A stretch of 64,000 nucleotides of DNA from Acutalibacteraceae bacterium (GTDB lineage: Bacteria > Bacillota > Clostridia > Oscillospirales > Acutalibacteraceae), in NCBI GenBank assembly GCA_045641565.1, contig JAZUHE010000067.1:1883-65882 (forward strand), read 5' to 3'. The position numbers were made by a program, and so were the translations under genes. Positions 25,423 through 41,804 of the stretch are shown here, one piece after another. Position 1 is the first letter of the stretch. Each line of letters opens with the position of its first letter. The notes under the pieces were generated by a model. The model was given only the letters and a program-made list of their open reading frames with translations, was not told the origin of the DNA and made no database searches.

Positions 25423-25496
25423 GCAGGGTTAGTACATCGGTAGTACAGGCGCTTCCCAAGCCTCAGAGGCGGGTTCGACTCCCGTACCCTGCTCCA
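25423..25496 (+). tRNA. tRNA-Gly (anticodon CCC), CCA encoded
   Basis: Manual cloverleaf. Acceptor GCAGGGT/ACCCTGC; D arm GTAC-ATCGGTA-GTAC; anticodon arm GGCGC-TTCCCAA-GCCTC; variable AGAG; T arm GCGGG-TTCGACT-CCCGT; discriminator T plus CCA. The anticodon stem has one C-C mismatch (29:41) and one G-U pair. Confidence 0.85.
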
Positions 25497-25801: not shown

Positions 25802-25830
25802 TTGATTTTTCGGTCGAAAAATGCTATACT
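25802..25830 (+). promoter_or_regulatory. Candidate promoter with an embedded palindromic operator, upstream of the XRE gene
   Basis: TTGATT, a 17-nt spacer, then TATACT. The spacer contains the palindrome ATTTTTCG-GT-CGAAAAAT (25805-25822). Confidence 0.5.
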
Positions 25831-25885: not shown

Positions 25886-26095
25886 ATGGCTGTTAGTTAT
25901 AAGAAATTGTGGCACATTCTTGTGGACAAAAACATGAAGAAAAAGGATCTGGAAGAAGCAGCCGGTATCACCCACTATCAAATGTACAAGCTCGCGAATG
26001 ATAAAGATATCACTACTGATGTGATTGGTGCCATTTGTGCTGCACTCGGGGTTGAGCCAAACGATATCATGGATTTTATTCCGGATAAAAAGTAA
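25886..26095 (+). CDS. XRE-family helix-turn-helix transcriptional regulator
   Basis: 69 aa with a Cro/C1-type HTH pattern (KKKDLEEAAGITHYQMYKLAND...). GGAG RBS. Confidence 0.85.
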   Translation: MAVSYKKLWHILVDKNMKKKDLEEAAGITHYQMYKLANDKDITTDVIGAICAALGVEPNDIMDFIPDKK

Positions 26096-26127
26096 GTAGT
26101 ACAAAATGATCTATTACGGAGGTTTTC

Positions 26128-28179
26128 ATGAGCTACTTAGAATTAGATATTAAACGAAGCTATGTCAGTTATGGTGATCATAATATTGCCAATTCATTTT
26201 TGGTACCTGCACTTAGGCATACGAGAATATATAAACGTAGTGTTGGCTTTTTTTCTTCCGGCGTATTTTCTCCAATTATTGACGGTATTGTTGCTCTATC
26301 GAGAAACAACGGCTATATCCAATTGATAGCGAGTCCTAACCTAAACGAGGAAGACATAAGGGCGATAGACCTTGGATATCAGAAAAGAGAAGATATTATA
26401 TCAGGTGCGGTTGAACGTGATTTTGAAAATGCTCTTGAAGAATTAGATGATGCAAGGTTACAGTTATTGGCATCATTGATAGCAAATGGTACAATGGATA
26501 TAAAAATCGCTGTAACAAATGGAACTGGCATATATCATGACAAGTTGGGGATCATAGAGGATTTTGACGGAAATGTACTTGTGTTTTATGGGTCTCCAAA
26601 TGCCAGCTTAAGCGGGTATCAAAACAATTATGAGAAAATCCGTGTGGTGAAAAGTTGGGTTATCTCGGATAAAGAAAGCATTGAAGATGAAGAGAATGAA
26701 TTTGATGCATTGTGGAATGATACCAATCCCCATGTAAAAGTTTACGATTATTCGATATCAGCGAAATTGAAAATTCTGTCTGTGTTGGAGAATCGGAAAA
26801 GTGCTGCTGATAGAGATGAAAAGAAAGCACCAATTGTCTTAAGGGACTATCAAAATGCTGCGATTAATGCGTGGGTTAAAAATGATTTTCACGGTTTTTA
26901 TGTTATGGCAACTGGTACCGGAAAAACATGGACAGCTATTTTCTCAGCCATTAAACTTATGGATACAATACCGGTGATGACTGTAATCTGCGCACCGTAT
27001 AAGCATCTGGTTAGACAGTGGGCTGAGGATGTGGAAAAGGCTGTTCCGGGCGCAATATTAATTTTGGTATCTTCTGAAAATCAAGGATGGGAACAACAGT
27101 TATCACAAGCAATTGTGCGACAGCGTTTACATAAGGAAACAAAAATTATTGTCATTTCTACGATTAAATCATTTTATCTTGAACGGTTTCAAAATACAAT
27201 CAAAAAATCAAAACAGGAAAAACTATTAATTGTTGATGAAGCTCATCGATTTACAAAACGACCAGAAGCCTTAAGTCAACAATTTCAGTATATGCTCGGA
27301 TTAAGTGCTACCCCTTTTAGTGGCAAAGACACTGCTAAAGGAAATGAGCTTATGGCGTTTTTTGGCGGGCAAGTTTTCAGCCTTCCTATTGAAGAAGCAT
27401 TGAAACGGGGTTTTTTGGTAAAATACAATTACTACCCTATTTTTGTAAATGCAACTGTAGATGAGGAAGAGCGTTTTAGAAAGAAAAGTGCGCAGATTGC
27501 TGGTTGCTTTAGGAATAACGTATGTATTGATCCTGAAAATCTGGCTTTGTACCTACGCGCCCGTCTACGAATCATTTCCATGGCACAGGAAAAACTTGAC
27601 CGCATTGAAGAAATTTTTGCGTATATAAAAGAGAAGGATCACTTTATTGTATACTGCGGAGATGGCAGACTTTATGATGATAATAATGAGGAAATCCGGC
27701 ACATTCAATTTGTAAAACGCAAGTTATCTGGTCTTGGATTTAAAACGAGCCAGTTTACAGCATCAGAGGATATGGCAGAACGTATGGATCTGGTAGATGC
27801 ATTTAACGAAGGCGCAATCGATGCGCTTGCTGCAATAAGGTGCTTGGATGAAGGAATCAACATTCCTTCTATAAATGGAGCCCTGATCCTATCAAGCAAC
27901 GATGATTATAGGGAATTCGTACAACGCAGAGGACGTATTCTGAGAACTTACAAAAATAAAGAATATGCGAATATCTACGATGTAATTGTTTTGCCGTCGT
28001 ATGATACTACAAAAATGGCAGAAATAGAACTTAGGCGATATTACGAATATGCAAGATTGGCATACAATTCTGAGGAACTGCTGACAAAACTTGAAAATAT
28101 TGCTGCGGATTATGGACTGGAGCTTGACGACTTTATTGCCACATTTGATGAAGGTAAGGAGGTAGACCTCGATGACTAA
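26128..28179 (+). CDS. PLD-family nuclease fused to an SF2 (ResIII/DEAH) helicase
   Basis: N-terminal HKD motif YHDKLGIIED...GSPNAS. Helicase motif I is ATGTGKTW, II is VDEAH, III is LSATP and VI is QRRGRILR. 683 aa with no extra C-terminal recognition domain. Confidence 0.85.
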   Translation: MSYLELDIKRSYVSYGDHNIANSFLVPALRHTRIYKRSVGFFSSGVFSPIIDGIVALSRNNGYIQLIASPNLNEEDIRAIDLGYQKREDIISGAVERDFENALEELDDARLQLLASLIANGTMDIKIAVTNGTGIYHDKLGIIEDFDGNVLVFYGSPNASLSGYQNNYEKIRVVKSWVISDKESIEDEENEFDALWNDTNPHVKVYDYSISAKLKILSVLENRKSAADRDEKKAPIVLRDYQNAAINAWVKNDFHGFYVMATGTGKTWTAIFSAIKLMDTIPVMTVICAPYKHLVRQWAEDVEKAVPGAILILVSSENQGWEQQLSQAIVRQRLHKETKIIVISTIKSFYLERFQNTIKKSKQEKLLIVDEAHRFTKRPEALSQQFQYMLGLSATPFSGKDTAKGNELMAFFGGQVFSLPIEEALKRGFLVKYNYYPIFVNATVDEEERFRKKSAQIAGCFRNNVCIDPENLALYLRARLRIISMAQEKLDRIEEIFAYIKEKDHFIVYCGDGRLYDDNNEEIRHIQFVKRKLSGLGFKTSQFTASEDMAERMDLVDAFNEGAIDALAAIRCLDEGINIPSINGALILSSNDDYREFVQRRGRILRTYKNKEYANIYDVIVLPSYDTTKMAEIELRRYYEYARLAYNSEELLTKLENIAADYGLELDDFIATFDEGKEVDLDD

Positions 28180-28345
28180 AGAAGAAGCAGTAATATACAT
28201 GATTTCGAAGGTGGAAGAGGTTGAGCGTGAACGATTGGCGTCACATTTTTCCATTGATGCTACAAAGCAAAAAAAAGAAGCTGTAGATGGAATTCTTAAA
28301 GCATTAAAGGAGGTTCAGCTCGATAATGAAGATCAGCAGGATTGA
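28172..28345 (+). CDS. Small 57-aa ORF (not in the supplied track), function unknown
   Basis: The ATG at 28172 overlaps the helicase stop (GATGACTAA) and is preceded by AAGGAGG 9 nt upstream. The ORF ends at the TGA at 28343-28345, 20 nt inside the next gene. Translation: MTKEEAVIYMISKVEEVERERLASHFSIDATKQKKEAVDGILKALKEVQLDNEDQQD. Confidence 0.5.
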   Translation: MTKEEAVIYMISKVEEVERERLASHFSIDATKQKKEAVDGILKALKEVQLDNEDQQD

Positions 28346-30314
28346 GTTTGAAAACTTTAGAAATTTTCGTGATCACTGCCGCATGGATTTTCCTACAGAT
28401 GGCAGCGTTTCTGTAATCTATGGTCCTAACGGAGTAGGAAAAACTACGCTACACCAGTTGTTCCAGTGGATTTTTTACGGAGATGTACATTTTAATAAAA
28501 CAGCAAGTAATAAAATGTATAATTTAGAGTTTGAACAAGCAGCTAGCTTTCATCAGGTGTTTTCTGTGCTGGGAGTAATTGATTTCGAACACCCTAACGC
28601 AGATGGTGTTATAGAATATTACTCGCTTCGAAGAGAATGGATATATCAAAAAGAGCAGCAGGAATCAAAAATTATTAACAAGAAATTTAGACTGTCTAAA
28701 AAAATCGGAGATGATTGGAAAACAGTATCTGATGATCCGGTTAATATCATAGAACAAATATTACCCAGCGGCTTATCTCAGTATTTCTTTTTTGATGGTG
28801 AAAGCATGATAGCTGACCTGAGCCAGAAAGGTAGAGATTCTGCAAAATCGCTCAGGAAAGCCTTGTACTCCATTTTTGATTTGGATATATATGAACAAGC
28901 ACTCGTACATATAGGGACACAGAGCAGCGGAACCTCTACTGTGTTAGGTAAACTGTATTTTAGTCGTGCAGAAAACAGCACTAACGCTGATGTAATTAAA
29001 GCACGAGGCCTATATCGCCAAGCACTAAAATGGGTAGAGGATCTAGAAGAAAAGATTAGATCTTGCAATGTAGCGATAGAGAGATATAAGCAGGAAGCTC
29101 AGGAGTTATCCGAACAAATTGGAAGTAATCCGTCTCAGGAAACATTGGAAAAGCGACGCAAAAAAGCCAAAGATTCTATAAAAGCTCTTGAAACAGCCAT
29201 TCAGCGTGAGACGAAAGCTTTTGGCGAAACTATTATGGCAAATTATCCATATTTGTTGCTTGCACGCATGGTTGAAGAAGCACAGGTTCGAATCGGCCTC
29301 AAAGTTGAAGAAGAAAAGCTTTTACCAGGTCTGACAAAAGAATTGGTGCTTTCATTACTAAAAGAAAACACTTGTCTGTGCGGAAATCCAATTACAGATG
29401 CCGAGCGTACTTCACTAAATAATCTCCTTAAAATGTTCCCACCGCTATCATATAAGTATATTTATGACCAGTTCAAAAATAATGCTATCCGTTGGAGTAC
29501 AACATATGATAGCGAGGCTCTGCTGAAACACTTAAATGCAATTTTTGAATATAGAGATCAGATTGCAGAGCTTCAGATTGAAATTCATGATATTGATGAA
29601 GAACAGAAACAAGGAGAAAATGTAGATGCGCTGATAGCAAAGCGCGCAAAAGCTGAAGAATCACAGCGGTATTGGCGAAATGAACTAGAAAAAGTAACAA
29701 AGGATCTTGGACTACAAGATCAGATAAAAAAGCAACGTAAGAAGAAGCTTGATGAACTTTTGGCCGCCAATAATGCCAACAAGAGCATCGATGAACAAAT
29801 CGCCATAATGGAAGCAGTCAGAATTTACTTCGACAGCACGTTGAAGTCGTCTGCAAAGCATTATAGTGAAACCCTTCGTTCAACCATTCAGGAATTACTT
29901 GGGAAGATGCTCACCAGCACGAGACAGGTTAGTATGACTGAAAAATTCGAACTGAGTGTAAAAGATAGCTTTGGTGATGAAGCAAAATCAGAAGGACAAT
30001 TTGCAGTTGTTTCATTTGCTTATATTGGAGGAATATTTAAGCTGCTTGGTGATGTGCCTGAATTGAAAGGAAAAGAATTCCCCCTAATTTTGGATGGACC
30101 GTTTTCAAAGTTGGATGTTATTCAGCGGCAGAACGTTATTAACACAATTCCGGCATATGCCCCGCAGGTCATATTGTTTTCGAAAGATGATATTAATAAT
30201 TGCTTTGGAGAAACAGGCATTGAAAATGTATGGACCATTTATAGCAATGCGGAAAGAAATGTATCTCGTGTAGAAAAAGGTTATAATCCGGAGGTGTTCA
30301 TCATAAATGCTTGA
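28326..30314 (+). CDS. SMC/ABC-like AAA ATPase, paralogous to DndD
   Basis: Walker A GPNGVGKTT, FFFDGESM motif, a long coiled-coil middle with CLCGNP, and a D-loop/Walker B region FPLILDGPFSKLD. The layout matches the DndD at 33342. Confidence 0.8.
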   Translation: MKISRIEFENFRNFRDHCRMDFPTDGSVSVIYGPNGVGKTTLHQLFQWIFYGDVHFNKTASNKMYNLEFEQAASFHQVFSVLGVIDFEHPNADGVIEYYSLRREWIYQKEQQESKIINKKFRLSKKIGDDWKTVSDDPVNIIEQILPSGLSQYFFFDGESMIADLSQKGRDSAKSLRKALYSIFDLDIYEQALVHIGTQSSGTSTVLGKLYFSRAENSTNADVIKARGLYRQALKWVEDLEEKIRSCNVAIERYKQEAQELSEQIGSNPSQETLEKRRKKAKDSIKALETAIQRETKAFGETIMANYPYLLLARMVEEAQVRIGLKVEEEKLLPGLTKELVLSLLKENTCLCGNPITDAERTSLNNLLKMFPPLSYKYIYDQFKNNAIRWSTTYDSEALLKHLNAIFEYRDQIAELQIEIHDIDEEQKQGENVDALIAKRAKAEESQRYWRNELEKVTKDLGLQDQIKKQRKKKLDELLAANNANKSIDEQIAIMEAVRIYFDSTLKSSAKHYSETLRSTIQELLGKMLTSTRQVSMTEKFELSVKDSFGDEAKSEGQFAVVSFAYIGGIFKLLGDVPELKGKEFPLILDGPFSKLDVIQRQNVINTIPAYAPQVILFSKDDINNCFGETGIENVWTIYSNAERNVSRVEKGYNPEVFIINA

Positions 30315-30822
30315 GTTTACAACTGATGCCTACTTAAGAGGACCTATTTGGCACGATACACTTGAAAAATTGGTTGGAAGCGTCTTTGAAACACAGTGGG
30401 ATGTATTTGCTCTTTGTATTTCAATTGGAATGATGTACGATAAGCAAATCGAAACAGAAAATATGGTTCCTGATGATTACGAAATGGAACCGCACTCTGT
30501 TGGTAGAAATGTCCTTGGAAAAGCCCAAAATAGAGCATTGTTGGAATTTATGTTTCAAACAGCTATGGTAACAACAAAGCATTTGGATCTTGATGAGGAC
30601 GCACGATTAGAATTAGCTTTTAACGATAATGCAAAACCAGACTTCAATCCAGTGACATTTTTAACAAAATTTGCAAATTATGGTATCTCAAAGCTTTCTG
30701 AGATAATTGCTGATACCGAGGATGTTGAACTTTTGGAATCTATGATGACTTTCCTCAACTCCACCTATGAATCAGGAGCAGAAATTATTGAAGACGAATT
30801 AGAAATTGAAGATTTCGAGTGA
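30307..30822 (+). CDS. 171-aa acidic-tailed protein with a DndE-like helix layout (hypothetical)
   Basis: It overlaps the ATPase gene by 8 nt and has a GGAGGTG RBS. The motif order ALCISIGM...GRNVLG...LLEFMFQ...FANYGISKL parallels DndE's KLAISMSL...NRQTITG...YKSLIE...HLDRGARIL. The C-terminus is Glu/Asp-rich. Confidence 0.65.
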   Translation: MLEFTTDAYLRGPIWHDTLEKLVGSVFETQWDVFALCISIGMMYDKQIETENMVPDDYEMEPHSVGRNVLGKAQNRALLEFMFQTAMVTTKHLDLDEDARLELAFNDNAKPDFNPVTFLTKFANYGISKLSEIIADTEDVELLESMMTFLNSTYESGAEIIEDELEIEDFE

Positions 30823-30842
30823 GTGTTTCAAATAGAGAACTA

Positions 30843-30897
30843 TTGACAAAATGCGACAAGCGTGATATACTTAAGTACATACTTAAGTATATCACGC
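30843..30897 (+). promoter_or_regulatory. Promoter plus 38-nt palindrome (operator and/or terminator) upstream of dndB
   Basis: TTGACA (30843-30848), a 17-nt spacer, then TATACT (30866-30871). Perfect 17-nt inverted arms GCGTGATATACTTAAGT / ACTTAAGTATATCACGC span 30860-30897 and are followed by TTTGCTTTG. Confidence 0.55.
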
Positions 30898-30915
30898 TTT
30901 GCTTTGAGGTGAATT

Positions 30916-31977
30916 ATGAATTTTACATACCGTTTCCCAGCTGTTCGTGGCGTTCAAGCTGGAAGAGAATATTATATTTCAATGGTTCCATTAAAGTTGT
31001 TATCTCGCTTGTTTCCTGCCGAAGAAGAAATTGTGCTTCCTGAATATCGGGCACAGCGTAGAATAAACGAAGCCCGTATTCCTGAAATTAAAAAATATAT
31101 TTTAGATAACCGGGATACTTATGTCTTTTCTGCCCTTTCTGCATCTATAGATGGTGAATTTAGGTTTGCTTCAATTGACGACGTAGATGTTGGCATCTTG
31201 GAAGTTGATATGGAATCTGTTTTTCTAATCAACGATGGGCAGCATCGTAAGGCTGCGATTTTAGCAGCGATGGAAGAAGATGCATCATTAGAAAAAGAAA
31301 CTATCTCAATTGTGTTTTTTGCAGATGAAGGACTCGCGCGCAGCCAACAGATGTTTACGGATTTAAATAAACATGCTGTAAAAACGTCCAATTCTCTTTC
31401 CACATTATACGATGCACGTGATGAGATTGCAGTTGCAACCAAAAATGTGATTGATGCTATTCCGTTCTTTAAGAAATACACCGATAAAGAACGAGATATC
31501 CTTGGAAAAAACTCGTCCAATCTGTTTACTTTGAACATGATCTATAAGGCAAATCAGAAAATACTTCACGGCGAAAAATGCAGCGAAAATGACGAGCGTT
31601 TTTTGATTGATTTCTGGAGGTTGATTTCCGAAAACATTATTGAGTGGCAAGAAGTTCTGAACAAAACCCTCACCAAAAAAGCTCTTAGAGAAAATTATAT
31701 CGTGGCGTTAGCAATAACAATTAGCGCCTTTGGAAGGCTGGGAAGACATTTTTATGAGCACCGTGATTCAATGGACTCATACCTTACTAAGCTTAGATCT
31801 ATCGACTGGTTGCGAACAAACGAAGCGTGGGTAGGTCGAACAATCCGACAGAACGGGAAAGTCTTAAATAGTGAAGAAGCGGTTTTATTAACGTGCTCAC
31901 TGATAAAGCAAAAACTTGGTATTTCTCTAACAAAAGAGGAACAGCAAAAAGAAAAAATGATGTTGGAGAAGAAATGA
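30916..31977 (+). CDS. dndB: DNA phosphorothioation protein DndB (DGQHR domain)
   Basis: INDGQHRKAAILAA (DGQHR motif). 353 aa, directly upstream of dndC. Confidence 0.85.
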   Translation: MNFTYRFPAVRGVQAGREYYISMVPLKLLSRLFPAEEEIVLPEYRAQRRINEARIPEIKKYILDNRDTYVFSALSASIDGEFRFASIDDVDVGILEVDMESVFLINDGQHRKAAILAAMEEDASLEKETISIVFFADEGLARSQQMFTDLNKHAVKTSNSLSTLYDARDEIAVATKNVIDAIPFFKKYTDKERDILGKNSSNLFTLNMIYKANQKILHGEKCSENDERFLIDFWRLISENIIEWQEVLNKTLTKKALRENYIVALAITISAFGRLGRHFYEHRDSMDSYLTKLRSIDWLRTNEAWVGRTIRQNGKVLNSEEAVLLTCSLIKQKLGISLTKEEQQKEKMMLEKK

Positions 31978-31978
31978 T

Positions 31979-33352
31979 ATGAAATATACGGGAGAATTTG
32001 CTGCATACGAGGACATCATTCAAGAAATGAAACTCGTATATCAAAATGATAAACGTCCATGGATGATTGGATTCAGCGGTGGTAAAGATTCGACGCTATT
32101 ATGTTGTCTTGTCATGGAAATGCTCGAACGACTTCCGGCAGAAAAGCGCAATAAAACAGTTTATATTGTTTCATCAGACACCATGGTTGAAAATCCAATT
32201 GTGCGAGATTATATGCATAGAATGTCAACTATGATTAATGAAGCTGGAGCGCGCCTAAATGTAAAAGCGGACATCATTTATCCCAAGGTCGAGGATACGT
32301 TCTGGTGCAAAACGATAGGACTTGGCTATCCTACACCGGAAGCTCCGGGATTTCGCTGGTGTACAGAACGTCTGAAGATTCATCCGATGAACGCGTATAC
32401 ACTCAATACGATCAAAAATAACGGTGAGGTTGTATTGCTTTTGGGTGTGCGCAAGGCTGAAAGCACATATAGGGCAAATAATATTCGCTCAAGAGAAATT
32501 GAGGGCAAGCTCCTTGTTCCACATAATGATATAGAGAATGCCTATGTATATAATCCACTCACAGAAATTCCAAATGAAGAAGTATGGAAGTTCTTGTTGA
32601 AGGGAGATGCTAAAACGCCCTGGGGCTCTGATAATAAATATCTTTTTTCACTCTATCAAGGGGAAAATCTCGGTGAAGAAGCCAGTGTTATCGGAGAAAT
32701 CGATGAGAACAAGATTCCGGTAACCGGGAATTCGCGTTTCGGTTGCTGGATTTGCACAATGGTAAAGGAAGACAAATCTCTGAAAACATTCATTGATCGC
32801 GGAGAAGAGTGGCTCATTCCTTTGCGTGATTACCGAAATTGGATGCTTTCCATGCGCACAACTCCTGGAGCACGCGAGTATAAACGCAGAAATGGCTCCA
32901 TGTATCGCAAAGCTGATGGATCATTAGGTGAAGGACCATTTACTATGGAGACTAGAAAAGAAATGCTTCGCCGCCTTCTTCAGCTTGAAGTGGATACAGG
33001 TTTATCACTTATCACAATTGAAGAGCTAAAGCAAATCGATATAATGTGGGATAATGAAGGAGACCTAACGCGAAGAAGCTTGGTGGAAATATACAACGAT
33101 GTAACTGGCAAAACACTTCCTTGGGATCAGTATAAGACGCCGATTTTTCCTGCAGATGTTATCGATGAAATCCAACAGCAATGCATAGAAAATAACGTTG
33201 AATTTGAACTGATTTCTAAGTTGATAGTTGAAATTGAAGCTAACAAATACTATACAAAAGGATCTATAATGACAAAGGCATTTGATCGAATAATCAATCA
33301 AGGATGGCTTCACTTTGACAGTATCGAGAAGGGTTTAAAAAATGATAATTGA
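31979..33352 (+). CDS. dndC: DNA phosphorothioation protein DndC (PAPS-reductase-like ATP pyrophosphatase)
   Basis: The PP-loop is GFSGGKDST and the Fe-S Cys motif is RFGCWICT. 457 aa. Confidence 0.92.
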   Translation: MKYTGEFAAYEDIIQEMKLVYQNDKRPWMIGFSGGKDSTLLCCLVMEMLERLPAEKRNKTVYIVSSDTMVENPIVRDYMHRMSTMINEAGARLNVKADIIYPKVEDTFWCKTIGLGYPTPEAPGFRWCTERLKIHPMNAYTLNTIKNNGEVVLLLGVRKAESTYRANNIRSREIEGKLLVPHNDIENAYVYNPLTEIPNEEVWKFLLKGDAKTPWGSDNKYLFSLYQGENLGEEASVIGEIDENKIPVTGNSRFGCWICTMVKEDKSLKTFIDRGEEWLIPLRDYRNWMLSMRTTPGAREYKRRNGSMYRKADGSLGEGPFTMETRKEMLRRLLQLEVDTGLSLITIEELKQIDIMWDNEGDLTRRSLVEIYNDVTGKTLPWDQYKTPIFPADVIDEIQQQCIENNVEFELISKLIVEIEANKYYTKGSIMTKAFDRIINQGWLHFDSIEKGLKNDN

Positions 33353-35429
33353 TAAGATTGTACTTTATAATTTCGGCTCGTATGAGGGTGAAAACGTCTT
33401 TGAGACTCATGGTACCGATGGAAAAAGCATCATATTAATCGGCGGAAAAAACGGGGCCGGTAAAACGACGCTTTTTACAGCAATGCGTATATGCTTATAT
33501 GGCTATATGAGCATGGGTTACAAAAATCTAAATTCGTTCTATTACCGAGCCATAACAAAATTGATTAACAATGAGGCAAAAATGATTCGTCCTGCGAAAT
33601 CTCATGTGCTGATGACTATTGAACTCAGCAATGGTAGAGGCGTTGATACATATGAGCTTTTGCGCGAATGGACTCTGACGGATTCATTGCTCGAAGAGTT
33701 TTGCGTCCTTAAAAATGGAATCCTTCTAAACGAGCAAGAAATCGCCGATTTTGAAAAATACCTTCTGTCAGTAATTCCACCAGAATTATTCAATTTGTAT
33801 TTTTTTGATGGAGAAAAAATAGCTGATTTCTTTTTGGAAGAAGGCAGTAATGCCAGGATAAAAAGTGCATTTTTAACTTTATGTGGATATGATACATTCG
33901 ACATTATGCGAAAAAACTTTAGGCGGATAAGTACTGGAAAGGGGAAAACTGCGCCTGCTCTGGATGGGTATATTGCCGCAAAAGAATCTGTATCGGAAGC
34001 TAAAGAGAAATATTTAGCGCTGACAGAGCTACTGAAAAATTGCATAGGTGAAATAGATTCATGCGAAGCTGAAATCACTGCATTAGAAAAAGAATACTAT
34101 CAAAAAGGTGGTATTACTCAAGAAGAATGGGATTTAAAAATTTTCACTCTAAAAGATGAAGAAAAGAAGCGAGAAAACTGGAACGCGCTCTTAAAAAAAT
34201 GGGCAAATGAGTTGATTCCATTTCTAATGATTAGGGACCAAATCGTTGCTTTAAAAAATCAAATTGAACGCGAGAATAAGGGACAAAAATATATAAACTT
34301 CTGTGAAGTTATTAATACACCAGAAATAACAGCAATTATTGGATCTCGAACAAACGAATTGCAGCAAATCGCATTCCAACAATTTGGCGATACAAACGAG
34401 CCCATTCTTAACCTTTCTATTGAGCAAAGCGCCATCCTTTTAGCTCAGATTAATCAGATCCTTGCGTTTGATTCAGAAAAGATTGGAAAATGCCGCAGGG
34501 CAATAAGAAATTCACAGGCTCTTACAGCTAAGCTGCGTCAGGAACTGGACAGCAGCAGTGTGTCTTCTGTTCAAGAATATATGCAAAAACGAGCACAATT
34601 GTTTGAAAAAAAGAGCCTTTTGTTAGTGCAGCGAGTAGAATTAGAGCAAAGATTGGTAGATCAGCAAAGTATCGTTATACAAGCCGAGTCCACATTATTA
34701 AGTGTGCAGACCAGATTAGAAGCAGATTTAAAAAAGGCATCGATAACAGATATTTCTGCGAAATCTATCGTTATGCTTGATAAATTACAGCAGGTGCTTT
34801 TTCAGAGGCAGATTGAAAAGGTCGAAGCGTTTTTCAGAAATGAAATTCGTACGCTTATGCGCAAGACGCATTTTATAGATGATATGCGGATTGACGATAG
34901 CTTTAATACGCATTTATATCGCCGAGAAACCATATCCACGAGTAAAATCGTTGAGATTCTAAACACGAATTCCGAAGAGCACGTTATTGCCATGCTGGGT
35001 GAGGCCGCCGTCAAGGAACTGCAAGATATTACTGGCAAAAAAACATTGGAAGAAATCGCTACTGTATGCCAAGATATCAATAAAGATTCTATTGATATTC
35101 TTATTGAAATCGATAAAGCAACGTTATCAAATGGCGAAAAGCAAATATTTATTATGGCACTTTACCATTCGCTCGTACAATTGTGTAATCATGAGATACC
35201 GTTCATAATCGATACACCATTTGCACGAATTGATACTGAGCATAGAAGAAATATTTCTGAACACTTTTTCCGCCAGCTAAATGGACAAGTATTCATTCTT
35301 TCTACCAATGAAGAAATCAGCTCTGAACATGTGCACATTATCGAAGATAAGATTGCTGCGACCTATATATTAGAAAATGCTGATAACAAGCGAACTACTG
35401 TAGTAAGCGGAAAGTATTTTGAGGTGTAA
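33342..35429 (+). CDS. dndD: DNA phosphorothioation protein DndD (SMC-like ATPase)
   Basis: Walker A GGKNGAGKTT, YFFDGEKIADFF, a coiled-coil middle, and IPFIIDTPFARIDTEHR. It overlaps dndC by 11 nt. Confidence 0.9.
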   Translation: MIIDKIVLYNFGSYEGENVFETHGTDGKSIILIGGKNGAGKTTLFTAMRICLYGYMSMGYKNLNSFYYRAITKLINNEAKMIRPAKSHVLMTIELSNGRGVDTYELLREWTLTDSLLEEFCVLKNGILLNEQEIADFEKYLLSVIPPELFNLYFFDGEKIADFFLEEGSNARIKSAFLTLCGYDTFDIMRKNFRRISTGKGKTAPALDGYIAAKESVSEAKEKYLALTELLKNCIGEIDSCEAEITALEKEYYQKGGITQEEWDLKIFTLKDEEKKRENWNALLKKWANELIPFLMIRDQIVALKNQIERENKGQKYINFCEVINTPEITAIIGSRTNELQQIAFQQFGDTNEPILNLSIEQSAILLAQINQILAFDSEKIGKCRRAIRNSQALTAKLRQELDSSSVSSVQEYMQKRAQLFEKKSLLLVQRVELEQRLVDQQSIVIQAESTLLSVQTRLEADLKKASITDISAKSIVMLDKLQQVLFQRQIEKVEAFFRNEIRTLMRKTHFIDDMRIDDSFNTHLYRRETISTSKIVEILNTNSEEHVIAMLGEAAVKELQDITGKKTLEEIATVCQDINKDSIDILIEIDKATLSNGEKQIFIMALYHSLVQLCNHEIPFIIDTPFARIDTEHRRNISEHFFRQLNGQVFILSTNEEISSEHVHIIEDKIAATYILENADNKRTTVVSGKYFEV

Positions 35430-35430
35430 T

Positions 35431-35808
35431 ATGGTTTTTAAGATTAGAACTTCAAAAAAAACAATGACTATTTTTGAAGAGATGGCTGCCAGCACAAATT
35501 ATGCACCGTTCATTCTTTCTAAGCTTGCCATTTCGATGTCTCTCAAACTTGGAGGTCCATTACAAGAGAACGATTTTCATACGGATACATATGGACTGGA
35601 ATTAAACAGACAAACAATTACTGGTGAATGGGACGAGCTATACAAAAGCCTGATAGAAATGCACGAAGGGCAACACATATCTGATGATGATTATTTTCAG
35701 AAATACCTGAAAGCTCATCTGGATCGTGGAGCTCGGATTCTTTATAGTGAGTTTAAGTATAATAACGATTTCCTAATTGGTCTTTTGAGCCATAAAACCG
35801 GTATATAA
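35431..35808 (+). CDS. dndE: DNA phosphorothioation protein DndE
   Basis: About 125 aa, starting 1 nt after the dndD stop, with a GAGGTG RBS. Size and position are typical of DndE. The ORF track begins at an upstream TTG (35419). Confidence 0.75.
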   Translation: MVFKIRTSKKTMTIFEEMAASTNYAPFILSKLAISMSLKLGGPLQENDFHTDTYGLELNRQTITGEWDELYKSLIEMHEGQHISDDDYFQKYLKAHLDRGARILYSEFKYNNDFLIGLLSHKTGI

Positions 35809-35822
35809 AAGAGGTGGATTGT

Positions 35823-37793
35823 ATGTCAAACATCAAAGGTACTATCATAAACGTAAAAGATTTTCTCAGCCAAGAAGTCGTTAGTATAAAGATTAGAGGC
35901 ACAGAAGAGAAGGTTTTTGAACTGGAAAAAGAACGAATATATGTCATTCCGGATTTTCAACGTGAGATTCGATGGTTGCCAGAAAACCTTATAGAACTGA
36001 TGAATGACATCTCACGCCGTGAAAAATTCCTTGGAAATCTAATTTTAACCAGGAATGAAAATAAAAAGTATTCTATAATTGATGGCCAGCAAAGGACGTC
36101 TATGTTGCTCATGCTAATTCAATTCGCTGTGACGAAGTATCGCGATGAGCTTCCAGCGCCCCCAGAGTTATGCATAATTGAGAATGAGAGCTTTCCGGAA
36201 TTTGGCGTTTTTCAAAAACACTGCTATTCATTTTCAGGAATGGAACCTGAACTTGCAGAAGAAGTGAAATCAAGCGACCAATATAAACAGGCTGAACGTT
36301 TTCAACTGTTATGGCAAACCATTGAGGATTCTGAAATCATTGCAGATTCATCATCCGCGCGAGATTTTTTAACCAACCTCTACCGTTGTGAATTTAATGT
36401 CATTTTGTCGGAAGAAGATTCCACGAATTATAGCATTGAGTATTTTCTGGATGTAAATTTAAAAGGCATAAAGTTAGACACTGAAGATATTTTTAAAGGT
36501 TATTTGTTTCATTTAGATCCAAGCGATGCATCACGTCAACTGTGGGTAGAAATGAAACGTAAATCATTGGAATTCAATGAGCTGTGCAAAACTTCACATT
36601 CCAAAAGCGATTGTTATCCGCTGATGAAATTGATAGAACATTTTTTATATTGCTATATCTATGACAACGAAAAATACAAGGATATCGTTTTTGGAGAGGA
36701 CTTCTGCCTAAAACAAAAAGTGCAAATAGACCGAACTATGCATTATACTGGAGAGCACATACTAAAGGTTATAAACAACAACAGATTTATTCGAGAGATG
36801 CTGGAAAAGATAATTAAATTCTTAACTATCGCTATCGATGTTGTGTCTAATTCGAGTCCTAGCACAAAATTAAAAGGGCTTTTTGTTGTGGACGATCCTA
36901 AAGAAAAAATAGATGACATTGATATATCTAATTTTTACACTTTTATAAAAATGGTTCTTATGGATAGAAAGGTAATTGTATCGAAAGCTGTTGTAATAAA
37001 ATACGCGCTAAACACGTTAATGAACACTTCTGACAACCAAAAAGAATCATACAAAAAGTTATATGCAGTACAGATGTTTGTTACTCTGTTTTCGCTGTTT
37101 GAAAATAAAAAAGGAATTGAGCCTGTAGAAAAAATATTGAAAGCAGCCAATTGGGATGAGGAAATACGTACCGCTATTACCATCTATTGCAGTAAAGATG
37201 CTATCGAAGAACGTAAGCGCAGCGCAGAGTTTAAATATAGTACAAACCCCGATAATGAACAGCAGAGGTATCATAGTATTGCTCTAGCAGCAGTATACAA
37301 CTTTTTTGTTTTCGATAAAAGTAAATTGGGTGTAAAAAAAGGAAAAGCCACGGATCTTAATGTTTTTCTTACTAACGACGAATTATTCAGTGTAGAGCAT
37401 TTTATCGTCAACGATTCGTTCAAAAGCAAGGTTAAGTATACAGATGCAGAAGATTATTACGAGTATGAATACCCGGCAGATGTTAAAAAGTATGCGGCAT
37501 CTATTTTTAATTTTATTTACATTCCGAGGGAACTTAATAAAGATTTAGGCAATAAACCCATTATGGATAAGTTAGCTATAGTATCTGTAGCTTCAACATC
37601 CTGCGAATACTCCAAAGTTGTTATTGATGCGGCAAGAGAATCATTCGAAGCTTTGCCGGCAATAAAAAAAGGAGCCGACGAAGATAATAAACGCGCGTTG
37701 GATAGGTATTTTGCTTACGAATTCAAGCAGCAATATGCAAATTTCGTTTCAATAATACTGAAAAATATCGCAAAAAAGTTTTGTGTTACATAA
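35823..37793 (+). CDS. DUF262 (ParB-like NTPase) plus DUF1524 (His-Me finger nuclease) protein, GmrSD/SspE-like
   Basis: N-terminal IPDFQREIRW and IIDGQQRT motifs. C-terminal VEHFIVN...FNFIYIPRELNKDLGNKP (HNH-like). The ATG at 35823 lies 6 nt after GAGGTG and 14 nt after the dndE stop. Confidence 0.8.
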   Translation: MSNIKGTIINVKDFLSQEVVSIKIRGTEEKVFELEKERIYVIPDFQREIRWLPENLIELMNDISRREKFLGNLILTRNENKKYSIIDGQQRTSMLLMLIQFAVTKYRDELPAPPELCIIENESFPEFGVFQKHCYSFSGMEPELAEEVKSSDQYKQAERFQLLWQTIEDSEIIADSSSARDFLTNLYRCEFNVILSEEDSTNYSIEYFLDVNLKGIKLDTEDIFKGYLFHLDPSDASRQLWVEMKRKSLEFNELCKTSHSKSDCYPLMKLIEHFLYCYIYDNEKYKDIVFGEDFCLKQKVQIDRTMHYTGEHILKVINNNRFIREMLEKIIKFLTIAIDVVSNSSPSTKLKGLFVVDDPKEKIDDIDISNFYTFIKMVLMDRKVIVSKAVVIKYALNTLMNTSDNQKESYKKLYAVQMFVTLFSLFENKKGIEPVEKILKAANWDEEIRTAITIYCSKDAIEERKRSAEFKYSTNPDNEQQRYHSIALAAVYNFFVFDKSKLGVKKGKATDLNVFLTNDELFSVEHFIVNDSFKSKVKYTDAEDYYEYEYPADVKKYAASIFNFIYIPRELNKDLGNKPIMDKLAIVSVASTSCEYSKVVIDAARESFEALPAIKKGADEDNKRALDRYFAYEFKQQYANFVSIILKNIAKKFCVT

Positions 37794-37811
37794 TACTTAT
37801 AGGAGATTAAT

Positions 37812-39794
37812 ATGCGCAACTTACGATCCTACTACTCTGCCACAATAGCAGATTTCCTAAGTCAGTCTGACCGAGAAATCCTCGGCATTATTCATGCCAA
37901 CGACATATCGGCGGAAACGACAATTCAACAGAGCAACACATGGGAGTCGGAAATTACGATTCTCAAGGATCAGTTGCGCACATTTTTAGACGGACGTATC
38001 ATCTTTGAGTACACTATACCACGCATGGGAAAACGAGTGGACGCTGTGGTGATATACCGGGACATCGTGTTTCTACTTGAGTTCAAGGTCGGAGACAAGG
38101 AGTACCGCGAGAGTACATATGATCAGGTTTATGATTATGCCCTGGACCTGCGGAACTTTCAGAAAGAAAGTCATGACAAACTGCTTGCCTGTCTGATGAT
38201 TTCTACCAGAGCACCGGAGCAACCGTGCGTTATAAACGAACGCAACCATATTATTGAGCCGATCCGTTGTAATGCAGAAAATATCGCTGCTGCCATTGAA
38301 ACGATCGTGGTGCAATATGACGAGCCGGCGTTTGATTACGAAGCGTGGGAAAACTCGGAGTATTTGCCGACACCGACTATTGTTGAAGCGGCACAGGCGC
38401 TATACCGTGGGCACAATGTCCATGATATCACCCGCAGCGATGCCGGCGCCGAAAATCTTACAGTCACCACAGATGAAATCAACCGAATCATTGATTACAG
38501 CAAAGCCAATCACCGGAAGTCGATTTGCTTTGTTACCGGTGTACCCGGAGCAGGTAAAACGCTGGTTGGTCTTAATCTTGCTATACAGCGATCAGACGCC
38601 GCAGCCGGCGAGCACGCGGTATTTCTATCCGGCAATTTCCCGCTTGTAACAGTGTTACAAGAGGCACTCGCTAGAGATAAGGTGGCGCAGGAAAAAGAAG
38701 CCGGACGCCGACTTTCAAAAAATGATGCACTACGCAGTACGTCGGCATTCATTCAAATTATCCACAAATATCGTGATTCTTTCGTCGGTAACGAACATAT
38801 CCCGCCGGAGCGCGTCGCCATTTTTGATGAGGCACAGCGCGCGTGGACGAAGGATATGATTGCTAAGTTCATGCAGACGAAAAAAGGCGTACCGGACTTT
38901 GAATACAGCGAGCCGGAGTTCCTGATCAGTACTATGGACAGGCATCAGGACTGGGCTGTTATCATCTGTCTTGTCGGTGGCGGACAGGAGATCAACACTG
39001 GTGAAGCCGGACTGCCAGAATGGTTTGACTCACTGCGTCGTGCATTCCCACATTGGGACGTATATATCACGCCTCAGCTCAACGACGAGGAATATCGCCG
39101 CGAACGCGAATGGAACGACATGATTGCCTACCTGCAGATCTATGAGAATGCTGATCTGCACCTTGCCACCTCGGTACGGTCCTTCCGCACACCGGATTTG
39201 GCTGCATTCGTCAAGGCTGTGTTGGACGTTGACACTGATGCGGCAAAAGAATTATATACTCGCATTAAAGATAAGTACCCCATCGTGCTGACACGTGATC
39301 TGAACAAAGCAAAAGAGTGGGTGCGTAACCAGTGCCAAGGCACCACACGCTATGGTTTGCTTGCCAGTAGTGGAGCGCTTCGCCTAAAACCGGAAGGAAT
39401 TTTCGTGAAGAATGAGATCTCCGTGGCAAACTGGTTTCTGAACGGAAAAGACGACGTGCGATCCAGCTATTATCTGGAGGACGTCGTTTCGGAGTTCGAC
39501 ATTCAAGGCCTGGAACTGGATTATTCCATTGTTGCGTGGGACGCGGACTTCCGTTTCGACGGCGAGCAGTGGACCTATAATAATTTCGTTGGTAACCGCT
39601 GGATGAACGTTGCGTCTGAGGATCGCAAATTGTATCTGAAAAATGCCTACCGAGTACTTCTCACCCGTGCTCGTCAAGGAATGGTGATATTTATCCCGGA
39701 AGGTAGTGATGCGGATGGAACACGGAAGCGAGAATGGTATGATAGGACGTATGAGTATCTGCATGATATAGTGTCAAACGAATCACAGATATAG
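37812..39794 (+). CDS. DUF2075-family ATPase/helicase-like protein with an N-terminal nuclease-like region
   Basis: DAVVIYRDIVFLLEFKVG (PD-(D/E)xK-like), Walker A VTGVPGAGKT, FDEAQRAW, GGGQEINTGEAG, and VLLTRARQGMVIF. Confidence 0.8.
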   Translation: MRNLRSYYSATIADFLSQSDREILGIIHANDISAETTIQQSNTWESEITILKDQLRTFLDGRIIFEYTIPRMGKRVDAVVIYRDIVFLLEFKVGDKEYRESTYDQVYDYALDLRNFQKESHDKLLACLMISTRAPEQPCVINERNHIIEPIRCNAENIAAAIETIVVQYDEPAFDYEAWENSEYLPTPTIVEAAQALYRGHNVHDITRSDAGAENLTVTTDEINRIIDYSKANHRKSICFVTGVPGAGKTLVGLNLAIQRSDAAAGEHAVFLSGNFPLVTVLQEALARDKVAQEKEAGRRLSKNDALRSTSAFIQIIHKYRDSFVGNEHIPPERVAIFDEAQRAWTKDMIAKFMQTKKGVPDFEYSEPEFLISTMDRHQDWAVIICLVGGGQEINTGEAGLPEWFDSLRRAFPHWDVYITPQLNDEEYRREREWNDMIAYLQIYENADLHLATSVRSFRTPDLAAFVKAVLDVDTDAAKELYTRIKDKYPIVLTRDLNKAKEWVRNQCQGTTRYGLLASSGALRLKPEGIFVKNEISVANWFLNGKDDVRSSYYLEDVVSEFDIQGLELDYSIVAWDADFRFDGEQWTYNNFVGNRWMNVASEDRKLYLKNAYRVLLTRARQGMVIFIPEGSDADGTRKREWYDRTYEYLHDIVSNESQI

Positions 39795-39816
39795 GACAGT
39801 AAACGGAGGATTCATA

Positions 39817-41760
39817 ATGGCAAATAATGATATGATTATTATTGATAGCATTGTCCAAGATCGCCTTCTTGAAAAAGGATTGAAAGATACGGATAAAACC
39901 CGCGGTGCAGAATTCGAAGAGTTTGCTTTTCAAGAAATACTAAAAAGCTACGACATTTCTAATACTCAGCTTGTAGATGGAATTGTTGACGGTCAAGATG
40001 ATGGCGGAATAGATGGATTCTATATTTTTGTAAACGGGATTCCTGTTATTGACCCGGATGATTTTCCCTGGCCAAGAAGGAATGCAGAATTAGAAATTTA
40101 TATTATTACTTCAAAGCACCACGACACATATGAACTCGGCCCATTAGAAAGCTTAGATTCCACCCTATCCGAAGTTTTTAATCTGCGGTTAAGCACGGAT
40201 AAATTTTCTAGCAAATTAAATTCTAAAGTCATTTCCAAGAGGAATACACTGGTACATACATATCGTAAAATTGGACATATTCTAGAGAATTGCATAATTT
40301 CCATTATTTACGTCTCTCGAGGTGACAGTTCTCAAGTTGCACCTAATATTGCTGCCAAAGGTCAAAAAATCAAAAAAACCTGCATGGAGAATTTCACGGA
40401 TTGTGAAACCAAACTCTCTTTCTTGGGATCCAAGGAGCTTGTTTCGTTATATCGAAAGAAAAGAAATGCGCCGGTTTCTATTAAAATAACCGAATGTTTC
40501 CAAAGGAAAAGTGACTATGTAGCGCTGGTTACACTGAGTGATTACTATTCTTTCGTAACTGATGACCAAGGGAAGCTAAAACGCTATTATTTCGAGGAAA
40601 ATGTGCGGGATTATCTTGGGGCCAATCGAACAAACGTCGATATCCAAAATACTCTTTTAAATCCCGATTCGCCTGATTTTTGGCTATTGAATAACGGAGT
40701 TACAATCCTGGCTTCAAAGGCTATTTTATATGACAAACAACTTGAGGTGGAAAACGTTCAGATTGTAAATGGGCTTCAAACAACTAATGCAATTTATCAG
40801 CACTTTTTCAACAGAAAAGAAGAAAATGATAACAGGAGCCTATTAGTGAAAATCATATGTTCTTCGAATGAAGACGTCAGACACGAAATAATACAGGCCA
40901 CAAATAATCAGTCTGCAATTCCTTTGTACTCTCTTCATGCTACAGATAAAATACAAAAAGACATTGAAGACATAATGATCCAAAACGGTTTGTTTTACGA
41001 AAGGAAGATAAATTATTATAAAAATTTAGGTTATGACGAGGAGCAAATATTCGCGCCACTATATTTGGCTGGTGGATACGTAACATTGATAATGAAACTT
41101 CCATATGTAGCTGCCGTTCTTAAATCAAAGTTTATGAACGAGCCATCACAATATGTGAAAGTTTTCTCTCCAAAATCCGATTTAAGAGTTTGGCCAGCCA
41201 TCGCCAAAATACTCAGAAAAGTTGATAGTGTTGCCGAAGCAAATAGAGCAAAAATTAAAACAAGTTCAGAAAAATATCTAAAAACAGTTAGACCAATTAT
41301 TTCATTACTCTGTGTCGCACGTCTACAAGGAAAATTCAATTTTGGCGAAAATGATCTTATTCGTATGGATATAGAATTGTTGGATGATGCCCTTATCGCT
41401 GATGTAGTAAACGATTTGGTTAATCTAATAAACAGTGATGATTCCCTAAAATCAATAAAAAATATAGCAAATTATGGTAAGATTCGTGAGATTATAAAAA
41501 GTCTTGGAGAAAAGTATAAATTACCAGATTACATTACAATTGAAAAACGCAAAAGTTTCATTGTAAGCAATTATGAAATAACAGAAGATTTTTTAAACGA
41601 AGTAAGAGAATACTTGCCCGCCCAGCCCTGGCCAGCAGGAATTCATAAGGTAATAGCTGAGAAAATAGGAAGTACAAACTCAAAAGTATATCGTGCAATA
41701 GATGAATTAATTGAAAGAGGAATATTTCGAGCACAAATTGATGGAAAGGTAACAGACTAG
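39817..41760 (+). CDS. AIPR-family abortive-infection protein
   Basis: VRDYLGANRTNVDIQNTL...FWLLNNGVTILA...IVNGLQTT matches the remembered AIPR pattern. 647 aa. Confidence 0.75.
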   Translation: MANNDMIIIDSIVQDRLLEKGLKDTDKTRGAEFEEFAFQEILKSYDISNTQLVDGIVDGQDDGGIDGFYIFVNGIPVIDPDDFPWPRRNAELEIYIITSKHHDTYELGPLESLDSTLSEVFNLRLSTDKFSSKLNSKVISKRNTLVHTYRKIGHILENCIISIIYVSRGDSSQVAPNIAAKGQKIKKTCMENFTDCETKLSFLGSKELVSLYRKKRNAPVSIKITECFQRKSDYVALVTLSDYYSFVTDDQGKLKRYYFEENVRDYLGANRTNVDIQNTLLNPDSPDFWLLNNGVTILASKAILYDKQLEVENVQIVNGLQTTNAIYQHFFNRKEENDNRSLLVKIICSSNEDVRHEIIQATNNQSAIPLYSLHATDKIQKDIEDIMIQNGLFYERKINYYKNLGYDEEQIFAPLYLAGGYVTLIMKLPYVAAVLKSKFMNEPSQYVKVFSPKSDLRVWPAIAKILRKVDSVAEANRAKIKTSSEKYLKTVRPIISLLCVARLQGKFNFGENDLIRMDIELLDDALIADVVNDLVNLINSDDSLKSIKNIANYGKIREIIKSLGEKYKLPDYITIEKRKSFIVSNYEITEDFLNEVREYLPAQPWPAGIHKVIAEKIGSTNSKVYRAIDELIERGIFRAQIDGKVTD

Positions 41761-41804
41761 TCAGTTCATTCTTTTAACACTAATATGTTACGTTTCGGTG
41801 CTGC

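Follow-up and report, generated by a model that had tools for sequence, protein, structure and literature searches.

The window analyzed here is a 64,000-nucleotide (nt) stretch of contig JAZUHE010000067.1 from an Acutalibacteraceae bacterium (GenBank assembly GCA_045641565.1), and this report concerns four genes that lie in it directly 5' of dndBCDE. The four open reading frames (ORFs) are located on the + strand, overlap one another, and encode proteins of 683, 57, 662, and 171 amino acids (aa). Numbered ORF1 to ORF4 in an earlier note on this DNA, they are referred to below by the positions that they occupy, PbeA, PbeB, PbeC, and PbeD. Next to dndBCDE, they very probably constitute a bacterial PbeABCD module, a system centered on a CxC ATP-binding cassette (ABC) ATPase. 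This system type is already known: its first description dates from 2019, a new annotation followed in 2024, and PADLOC detects it. The window provides another bacterial example.

The ORF2 start (ATG 28172) lies inside ...cgATGACTAA, overlaps the ORF1 stop by 8 nt, and has AAGGAGG 9 nt upstream. At the second junction, the ORF3 ATG at 28326 precedes the ORF2 stop (28343-28345), giving a 20-nt overlap, and is itself preceded by AAGGAGG. The third junction again overlaps by 8 nt, with the ORF4 ATG at 30307, the ORF3 stop at 30312-30314, and GGAGGTG ahead of the start. Read from the sequence, every downstream start of ORF2 to ORF4 thus has a GGAGG-type ribosome-binding site, and the four genes would form one co-transcribed operon. 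The earlier note had described four + strand ORFs chained by a start/stop junction at 28172 and by overlaps of 20 and 8 nt, a 57-aa ORF2 with a strong ribosome-binding site, a nuclease of the phospholipase D (PLD)/HKD type fused to a superfamily 2 (SF2) helicase in ORF1, and an ATPase resembling ABC and structural maintenance of chromosomes (SMC) proteins, with DndD-mirroring motifs, in ORF3. The overlaps fall exactly where it had placed them, ORF2 is conserved across related loci, and all motifs that it quoted from ORF1 and ORF3 were found in the translations; the domain matches and the DndD parallels given below bear out both protein calls.

Table 1. Features of the pbe-dnd region and its surroundings, in window positions
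Feature	Position	Strand	Description
pbeA (ORF1)	26128-28179	+	683 aa; single HKD (PLD-family) nuclease fused to SF2 helicase/translocase
pbeB-position gene (ORF2)	28172-28345	+	57 aa; translationally coupled at both ends
pbeC (ORF3)	28326-30314	+	662 aa; CxC-type coiled-coil ABC ATPase, Rad50/DndD-like
pbeD-position gene (ORF4)	30307-30822	+	171 aa; acidic tail; presumed DNA-binding partner of PbeC
dndB	30916-31977	+	NCBIfam DndB 423.7 bits, above cut-off
dndC	31979-33352	+	NCBIfam DndC 382.1 bits, above cut-off
dndD	33342-35429	+	NCBIfam DndD 293.6 bits, above cut-off; no CxC
dndE	35419-35808	+	NCBIfam 54.3 bits, below cut-off (71.85); Pfam DndE 80.6 bits, above cut-off
Promoter-like site	30843-30871	+	TTGACA-17-TATACT in pbeD-dndB spacer; 11/12 sigma-70-like match, best of region
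Palindrome	30858-30899		Perfect, 42 nt (20+20 nt); core TATACTTAAGTA..TACTTAAGTATA; overlaps -10 of dndB promoter
DUF262 gene	35814-37793	+	659 aa; ParB-like NTPase; starts 5 nt past dndE
Helix-turn-helix (HTH) leader gene	25886-26095	+	69 aa; Cro/C1-type; Pfam HTH_26, E 8.3e-19; 32 nt upstream of pbeA
tRNA-Gly(CCC)	25423-25496		Terminator hairpin follows (element to 25532); left edge of low-G+C stretch
PDC-S41 (PADLOC candidate)	37812-39794		Schlafen-like helicase, 924 bits
AbiU	39817-41760		462 bits; AIPR domain
Two Bro-N proteins (one Fic-fused) and rve-family transposase (insertion sequence)	41805-42419, 43743-44609, 45841-47322		

ORF1 aligns with PbeA over almost its full length

The PADLOC PbeA model matches ORF1 at 656.3 bits, with residues 5-651 aligned on model positions 4-668 of 672. 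Three Pfam domains, PLDc_2 (PF13091), ResIII (PF04851), and Helicase_C (PF00271), all score above their cut-offs. The Pfam scan detected no domain beyond Helicase_C and, in agreement with the earlier note, no C-terminal DUF3427, the reader domain of SauUSI. The best NCBIfam match is TIGR04095 (dnd_restrict_1; 383.5 bits, E 1.5e-114, model 7-451 of 451), which is the family "DNA phosphorothioation system restriction enzyme" that the note had named.

The motifs of both halves are present in ORF1, namely HDKLGIIED (137), ATGTGKT (261), DEAH (370), SATP (393), and QRRGRILR (599), with H137/K139...GSPN, K266, D370EAH, and Q599RRGRILR as key residues. The HKD motif has a noncanonical spacing (HxK-x5-D...GSxN) and occurs in one copy per protein. 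HxK...GSxN and Walker A are each found in 53 of 53 homologs and DEAH in 50. The nearest solved structures, XPB/Rad25 and SauUSI (7clg), correspond to the helicase part only, 7clg aligning solely with residues 499-634. In the single-HKD nucleases Nuc and BfiI, the active site is formed by a dimer; because each PbeA carries a single HKD motif, two copies would have to pair to build an active site.

ORF3 carries a conserved CxC at the predicted coiled-coil apex

ORF3 matches the PADLOC PbeC model at 235.1 bits (residues 1-618 on model 1-616 of 644), and the PADLOC DndD models score it lower, at 116 bits or less. Its Pfam domain is the N-terminal ABC head, PF13476 (AAA_23). The motifs GPNGVGKTT (33-41), FFFDGESM, and LILDGPFSKLD have their parallels in the downstream DndD (GKNGAGKTT, YFFDGEK, and FIIDTPFARID), and the two proteins are 26% identical over the head domain. 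A cysteine pair, C350-x-C352, is invariant in 54/54 PbeC homologs, and CxC occurs in none of 43 neighboring DndD proteins.

In the AlphaFold2 (AF2) model of PbeC, which has a mean predicted local distance difference test score (pLDDT) of 83, the CxC occupies a short hairpin that has the ascending helices (221-323) on one side and the descending ones (376-528) on the other. The predicted position is thus the coiled-coil apex, where, by analogy, the pair would form a zinc hook. Rad50 structures head the fold matches of the model (lowest E 9.5e-16); behind them come JetC, SMC heads, and Lamassu LmuB.

The two small genes are tentatively assigned by position, size, and conservation

In each of the 53 sequences in which a script found a counterpart of ORF2 (52 related loci and the window), this ORF is 50-57 aa long, its ATG overlaps the pbeA stop by exactly 8 nt, and its start lies behind GGAGG. 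Outside this count, the corresponding gap of locus L036 holds a 53-aa ORF that a stricter filter had missed. Mean pairwise identity is 35.5% for the small ORF, compared with 59% for PbeA and 47% for both PbeC and PbeD. The PbeB-position protein is thus the fastest evolving of the four, which agrees with the published description of PbeB. Judged from the alignment, it looks helical and can be aligned across the lineage. No match to ORF2 was found in Pfam, NCBIfam, or PADLOC, and relaxing the Pfam search to E-values up to 5 returned only noise, both for ORF2 and for ORF4. It is by size (57 versus 66 aa), position, and fast evolution, rather than by an HMM (hidden Markov model) match establishing sequence homology to archaeal PbeB, that ORF2 is identified as the probable PbeB.

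The sole family match of ORF4 is TIGR04062 (dnd_assoc_4, "DNA phosphorothioation-associated protein 4"), at 18 bits (E 0.0024), below the curated cut-off of 74.25 bits. This family also matched 6 of 37 close ORF4 homologs and 13 of 82 distant ones that a full profile search had gathered (best E 2.9e-7), which makes ORF4 a remote, diverged relative only. The "dnd system-associated protein 4" that the earlier note had named is indeed its best match, albeit a weak one, and no Pfam or PADLOC family was found for ORF4. The AF2 model (pLDDT 87.6) consists of two strand-helix-helix units (E8-10/H13-22/H30-44 and E63-65/H67-89/H97-105), three more helices, and a disordered acidic tail, a predicted fold that fits the double ribbon-helix-helix description of DndE. 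When this model was searched against the PDB with Foldseek, only the Escherichia coli DndE structures 4lrv and 5wtu reached an appreciable probability (0.15-0.51). Position, size (171 versus 152 aa), and conservation point to ORF4 as PbeD and, by analogy, it is presumably the DNA-binding partner of PbeC.

Existing annotations give these proteins other names or none. In the JGI annotation, PbeC-type CxC ATPases (homologs P0249, P0285, and P0306) are labeled "DNA sulfur modification protein DndD", and no name is recorded in any source for the four pbe proteins of the window. With PbeC mislabeled as DndD and PbeB and PbeD left unnamed, automatic annotation hides Pbe systems.

The gene order is conserved in related loci

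Related loci were gathered from other genomes through a search with the ORF4 (PbeD) family, which introduces an ascertainment bias. The 56 loci obtained come almost entirely from gut, rumen, or fecal Clostridia, and the closest one, L001, belongs to an uncultured Clostridia metagenome-assembled genome with 86-100% protein identity across the pbe-dnd island. Wherever these genes occur among the related loci, their order is pbeA-(small ORF)-pbeC-pbeD. Conserved in 56 loci from other genomes, the four-gene arrangement is far beyond chance. Downstream, dndC and dndD are present in 47 of the 49 loci with at least 5.5 kb of downstream flank, and the linkage to dndBCDE is nearly constant in this lineage. 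Two loci, L016 and L021, hold pbeABCD without dnd genes.

About 28 related loci carry an additional, conserved gene of 875-985 aa that ends at or overlaps the pbeA start (for example, L008:3204-5873, L016:3083-5869, and L021:3149-5872), and it is thus also present in the two loci that lack dnd genes. Precomputed Pfam matches of its homologs are to the RNA polymerase alpha C-terminal domain (PF03118) and sigma-70 region 4 (PF04545), and the C-terminal ~480 aa have no Pfam, NCBIfam, or PADLOC match. This ~900-aa gene is absent from the window and from L001-L004; in the window, the 69-aa HTH gene takes its place. It may encode a fifth Pbe component.

Comparison with described systems

The window locus closely resembles the PbeABCD system described by Xiong et al. 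in 2019, in which PbeA combines PF13091, PF04851, and PF00271, PbeB has 66 aa, PbeC carries PF13476, and PbeD has 152 aa (PMC6459918). In Haloterrigena jeotgali A29, the pbeABCD genes form one co-transcribed operon beside the dnd genes (PMC6459918). The window shares with this DndCDEA-PbeABCD system the A-B-C-D operon, a PLDc_2+ResIII+Helicase_C PbeA, a tiny second gene (66 versus 57 aa), an AAA_23-headed PbeC, a small fourth gene (152 versus 171 aa), and adjacency to phosphorothioate (PT) genes. In H. jeotgali, however, pbe lies downstream of dndCDEA, whereas in the window it lies upstream of dndBCDE. Further differences are the bacterial host, the presence of DndB, the lack of dndA in the cluster, and the Cro/C1 HTH leader. 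Unlike those of H. jeotgali, the small proteins of the window are too diverged for the PADLOC PbeB and PbeD models, and the window copy is known from its genes alone.

Rakesh et al. (2024) described PbeA as an HKD-SF2 helicase, PbeB as a rapidly evolving small protein, PbeC as a CxC zinc-hook ABC ATPase with DndD as its sister, and PbeD as a DndE cognate; in 936 bacterial taxa, they found CxC systems arranged in tandem with those of the DndD-DndE type (PMC10853773). The window has the same components, i.e., an HKD-SF2 helicase, a fast-evolving small protein, a CxC ATPase, and a candidate DndE-like protein, in tandem with DndD-DndE. In contrast to the window, some of those systems have a methylase or MTaX1, and their small protein is "mostly disordered" rather than helical-looking.

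The likeness to DndD-DndE itself extends to the DndD head motifs and coiled-coil ABC fold of PbeC and to the two predicted strand-helix-helix units of PbeD. PbeC differs in having the CxC hook, seen in 0/43 DndD, and PbeD exceeds DndE in length, adding further helices at its C-terminal end as well as the acidic tail. Moreover, PbeC/PbeD are partnered with a nuclease-helicase and DndD-DndE with DndC. SauUSI-type type IV enzymes resemble PbeA in their N-terminal single PLD/HKD nuclease and SF2 helicase; PbeA, by contrast, lacks DUF3427, relies on three partners, and would leave modified DNA alone instead of attacking it. For PbeC, the best fold likenesses are Rad50 (of Mre11-Rad50), JetC, and LmuB. 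Rad50 also has a cysteine zinc hook at its apex, but the PbeC hook is CxC instead of CxxC, its coiled coil is shorter (~300 residues), and its partner is an HKD-helicase and not Mre11.

The modification module, the operon leader, and the defense island

The dndBCDE genes are the PT modification module that would partner the pbe genes. No dndA/iscS cysteine desulfurase was found among the 20 other window ORFs scanned. The 93 nt between the end of pbeD and the start of dndB contain the promoter-like site and the perfect palindrome listed in Table 1. Of 43 related pbeD-dndB spacers, 39 contain the palindrome core TATACTTAAGTA; the outer arms co-vary among related loci, and a T run often follows. 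The palindrome is probably an operator for DndB, a terminator of pbe transcription, or both. A promoter and a conserved palindrome ahead of dndB suggest that dndBCDE is a separate transcription unit, probably controlled by DndB.

At the 5' end of the pbe genes, a promoter-like site (25802-25830) is located ahead of the HTH leader gene, which probably heads the pbe operon and regulates it. L001 (100% identity) and L004 (46%) carry this gene as well, directly 5' of pbeA. It is otherwise sporadic, being present in 4 of the 28 loci with the large upstream gene, and it was ruled out as a constant feature of related operons.

The locus belongs to a chromosomal defense island of low G+C content, and its host is a Clostridia-type bacterium from the gut. 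The left flank consists of the housekeeping genes ffh, uvrC, rsmD, and coaD. Past the tRNA-Gly gene, the G+C content falls from ~0.45 to ~0.37, and positions 26000-42000, with values of 0.35-0.40, hold the pbe, dnd, and other defense genes. A direct repeat of the tRNA-Gly end of at least 16 nt, which could mark an attachment site as island boundary, was not found, and an Rfam scan of 24.5-42.5 kb returned the tRNA only.

A DUF262 gene follows dndE

The protein encoded directly behind dndE matches Pfam GmrSD_N (E 1.4e-20) and contains an IIDGQQR motif. Toward the C terminus, E528-H529, N566, and N575 are invariant, a pattern that resembles a DUF1524/His-Me finger. The domain layout is that of the PT-sensing nucleases DndI and SspE (PMC11662687). 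The profile of this protein matches only the N-terminal DUF262 core of SspE (6jiv) and of 20yv, and a phmmer search against the PDB gave no match. As the similarity is confined to the DGQQR core, membership in the DndI family could not be shown. Homologs adjoin pbe/dnd in at least 14 loci, in which they lie after dndE, between pbeD and dndB, or before pbeA. The protein is therefore presented as a second candidate PT-linked effector of the DndI/SspE type.

Proposed mechanism and competing explanations

In the scheme that we propose, DndBCDE and a cysteine desulfurase encoded elsewhere would mark host DNA with PT. PbeC, dimerized through its presumed zinc hook and accompanied by PbeD as a DNA-reading partner analogous to DndE in the DndD-DndE pair, would load on DNA and scan it. 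PbeA would then be the ATP-driven translocase-nuclease effector, acting as a dimer as Nuc, BfiI, and SauUSI do, and could nick or cut DNA devoid of PT. PbeB, an acidic and apparently helical protein of 57 aa, could serve as an adaptor or negative regulator that translational coupling keeps stoichiometric.

Experimental support comes from the archaeal system, studied with the H. jeotgali genes in Natrinema, where all four pbe genes are needed and protection requires host PT (PMC6459918). A PT-modified virus escapes, and in the absence of PT, pbeABCD has no toxic effect and gives no protection (PMC6459918). Viral DNA replication is blocked and cleavage was undetected (PMC6459918). In addition, DNA modification by dndCDEA does not need pbe, and protection is lost when pbe genes are deleted (PMC6459918). 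A 2025 review calls the Pbe restriction event obscure (PMC12707154), and PDB searches found no solved structures of Pbe proteins.

Several observations weigh against the assignment of the window genes as a PT-dependent PbeABCD module. ORF1 scores below the curated 600-bit cut-off of TIGR04095 and is thus a clear relative of this family that does not reach its equivalog threshold. ORF2 and ORF4 gave no match to the PADLOC PbeB and PbeD models at E-values up to 10. The HMM searches that the earlier note had called for place the two large proteins, ORF1 in PbeA and ORF3 in PbeC, which for these two is an outcome that the note had named as refuting its reading; they leave the two small ones unplaced. 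ORF3 matches the NCBIfam DndD profile (TIGR03185) at 110.4 bits, below the cut-off of 245.85; this low score and the presence of the CxC argue that ORF3 is not a DndD.

For ORF4 and DndE, the Foldseek alignments have template modeling scores of 0.49-0.58 on the target, but E-values of ~0.8-3.4, which are not significant. Alignment by hhalign of PbeD profiles from 37 and 82 sequences with the window DndE was not significant either, nor was that with a profile of 41 related-locus DndE proteins (probability 4.6%, pairwise E 0.0088). BLASTP detected no significant similarity between PbeD and DndE, and the PbeD profile matched no PDB sequence. Since all sequence comparisons of PbeD with DndE were nonsignificant, no homology is claimed from them. 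Of what the earlier note had seen in ORF4, the acidic tail is present, and the DndE-like helix pattern has a counterpart in the two predicted strand-helix-helix units; the fold match is weak and the sequence homology was not recovered.

Other reservations concern function. The nuclease role of PbeA is disputed, with no cleavage in the archaeal system (PMC6459918) versus the cleavage or suicide argued for by Rakesh et al. (PMC10853773). No experiments on bacterial Pbe systems were found in the literature. In a published survey, 320 of 553 pbeAC pairs (58%) had no dndCD nearby, and the two showed low co-evolution (rho 0.107) (PMC6459918). Finally, a second candidate PT effector lies behind dndE, which weakens the case for PT dependence of the window pbe copy.

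Four other explanations were weighed. The first is abortive infection, the alternative put forward by Rakesh et al. (PMC10853773), in which the HKD nuclease of PbeA would attack host DNA once a phage factor has eliminated or altered a labile inhibitor, PbeB, and PT or PbeC/PbeD scanning would merely set the threshold. PbeB evolves fastest, as expected of a phage-facing part, it is produced in a fixed ratio through coupling, and the lack of visible viral DNA cleavage in the archaeal system (PMC6459918) is also in its favor. We nevertheless consider this explanation unlikely, given that the archaeal PT-modified virus escapes and that deletion of pbeB abolished protection and caused no toxicity (PMC6459918). 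The archaeal pbeABCD without PT, being neither toxic nor protective, is more in keeping with self/non-self marking than with a trigger for suicide.

A second explanation, which also appears quite improbable, is that pbe is a stand-alone defense merely neighboring dndBCDE, the DUF262 nuclease-like gene being the true PT-sensing effector. The survey figures just cited speak for it, as do the two dnd-less loci L016 and L021, the strong predicted promoter and operator that dndB has of its own, the DndI/SspE architecture encoded 5 nt past dndE (PMC11662687), and the further defense genes PDC-S41 and AbiU downstream. Against this, 47 of 49 related loci keep pbeD ~100-200 nt from dndB and in the same orientation, far tighter than an island neighborhood, while the DUF262 gene is less constant (~14 loci) and varies in position; the archaeal system, furthermore, is PT dependent (PMC6459918).

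Still less credible is the explanation that PbeC and PbeD are a second DndD/DndE-like pair that installs or targets a DNA modification instead of restricting DNA. PbeC is indeed a DndD paralog by its head domain, the 2025 review groups CxC ATPases with modification ATPases (PMC12707154), and some CxC systems carry methylases (PMC10853773). The pbe operon of the window, however, encodes no sulfurtransferase or methylase and couples PbeC/PbeD to a nuclease-helicase, and in archaea modification proceeds without pbe, whose deletion costs protection (PMC6459918).

The last explanation, that of a new, uncharacterized restriction arm unrelated to the described PT partners, had been drawn in the earlier note from its statement that no characterized partner has this architecture; although ORF2 and ORF4 lack a PADLOC or Pfam family and ORF1 stays below the TIGR04095 cut-off, it is refuted, to the point of being hardly conceivable, by the full-length PADLOC matches to PbeA and PbeC, the agreement with the published PbeABCD in domains, sizes of the genes, and their order (PMC6459918), the CxC hallmark, and the DndD + CxC tandems in 936 bacterial taxa (PMC10853773). 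The note was right in setting this PT-linked defense arm apart from DndFGH, and no DndF, DndG, DndH, SspF-H, or SspE match to ORF1 to ORF4 was found in NCBIfam or PADLOC.

Implications

As a PbeABCD module, the locus has small discovery value, the system type having been known since 2019 and being detectable by PADLOC. A compact bacterial pbe copy whose genes are tightly coupled, whose HKD and helicase motifs are intact, and which has a dndBCDE of its own would nonetheless be a convenient bacterial model, which could settle whether PbeA cleaves DNA and what the roles of PbeB and PbeD are. The more original leads are the DUF262 gene after dndE, the conserved operator candidate in the spacer, and the ~900-aa fifth gene of the relatives. 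It is a tentative and rather doubtful possibility that in this Clostridia lineage one dndBCDE serves both PbeABCD and an undescribed DUF262-(EH...N...N) nuclease-like protein, joined in relatives by a fifth, ~900-aa Pbe-linked protein. If that fifth protein is functional, the relatives would have a Pbe variant equipped with an additional sensor or regulator.

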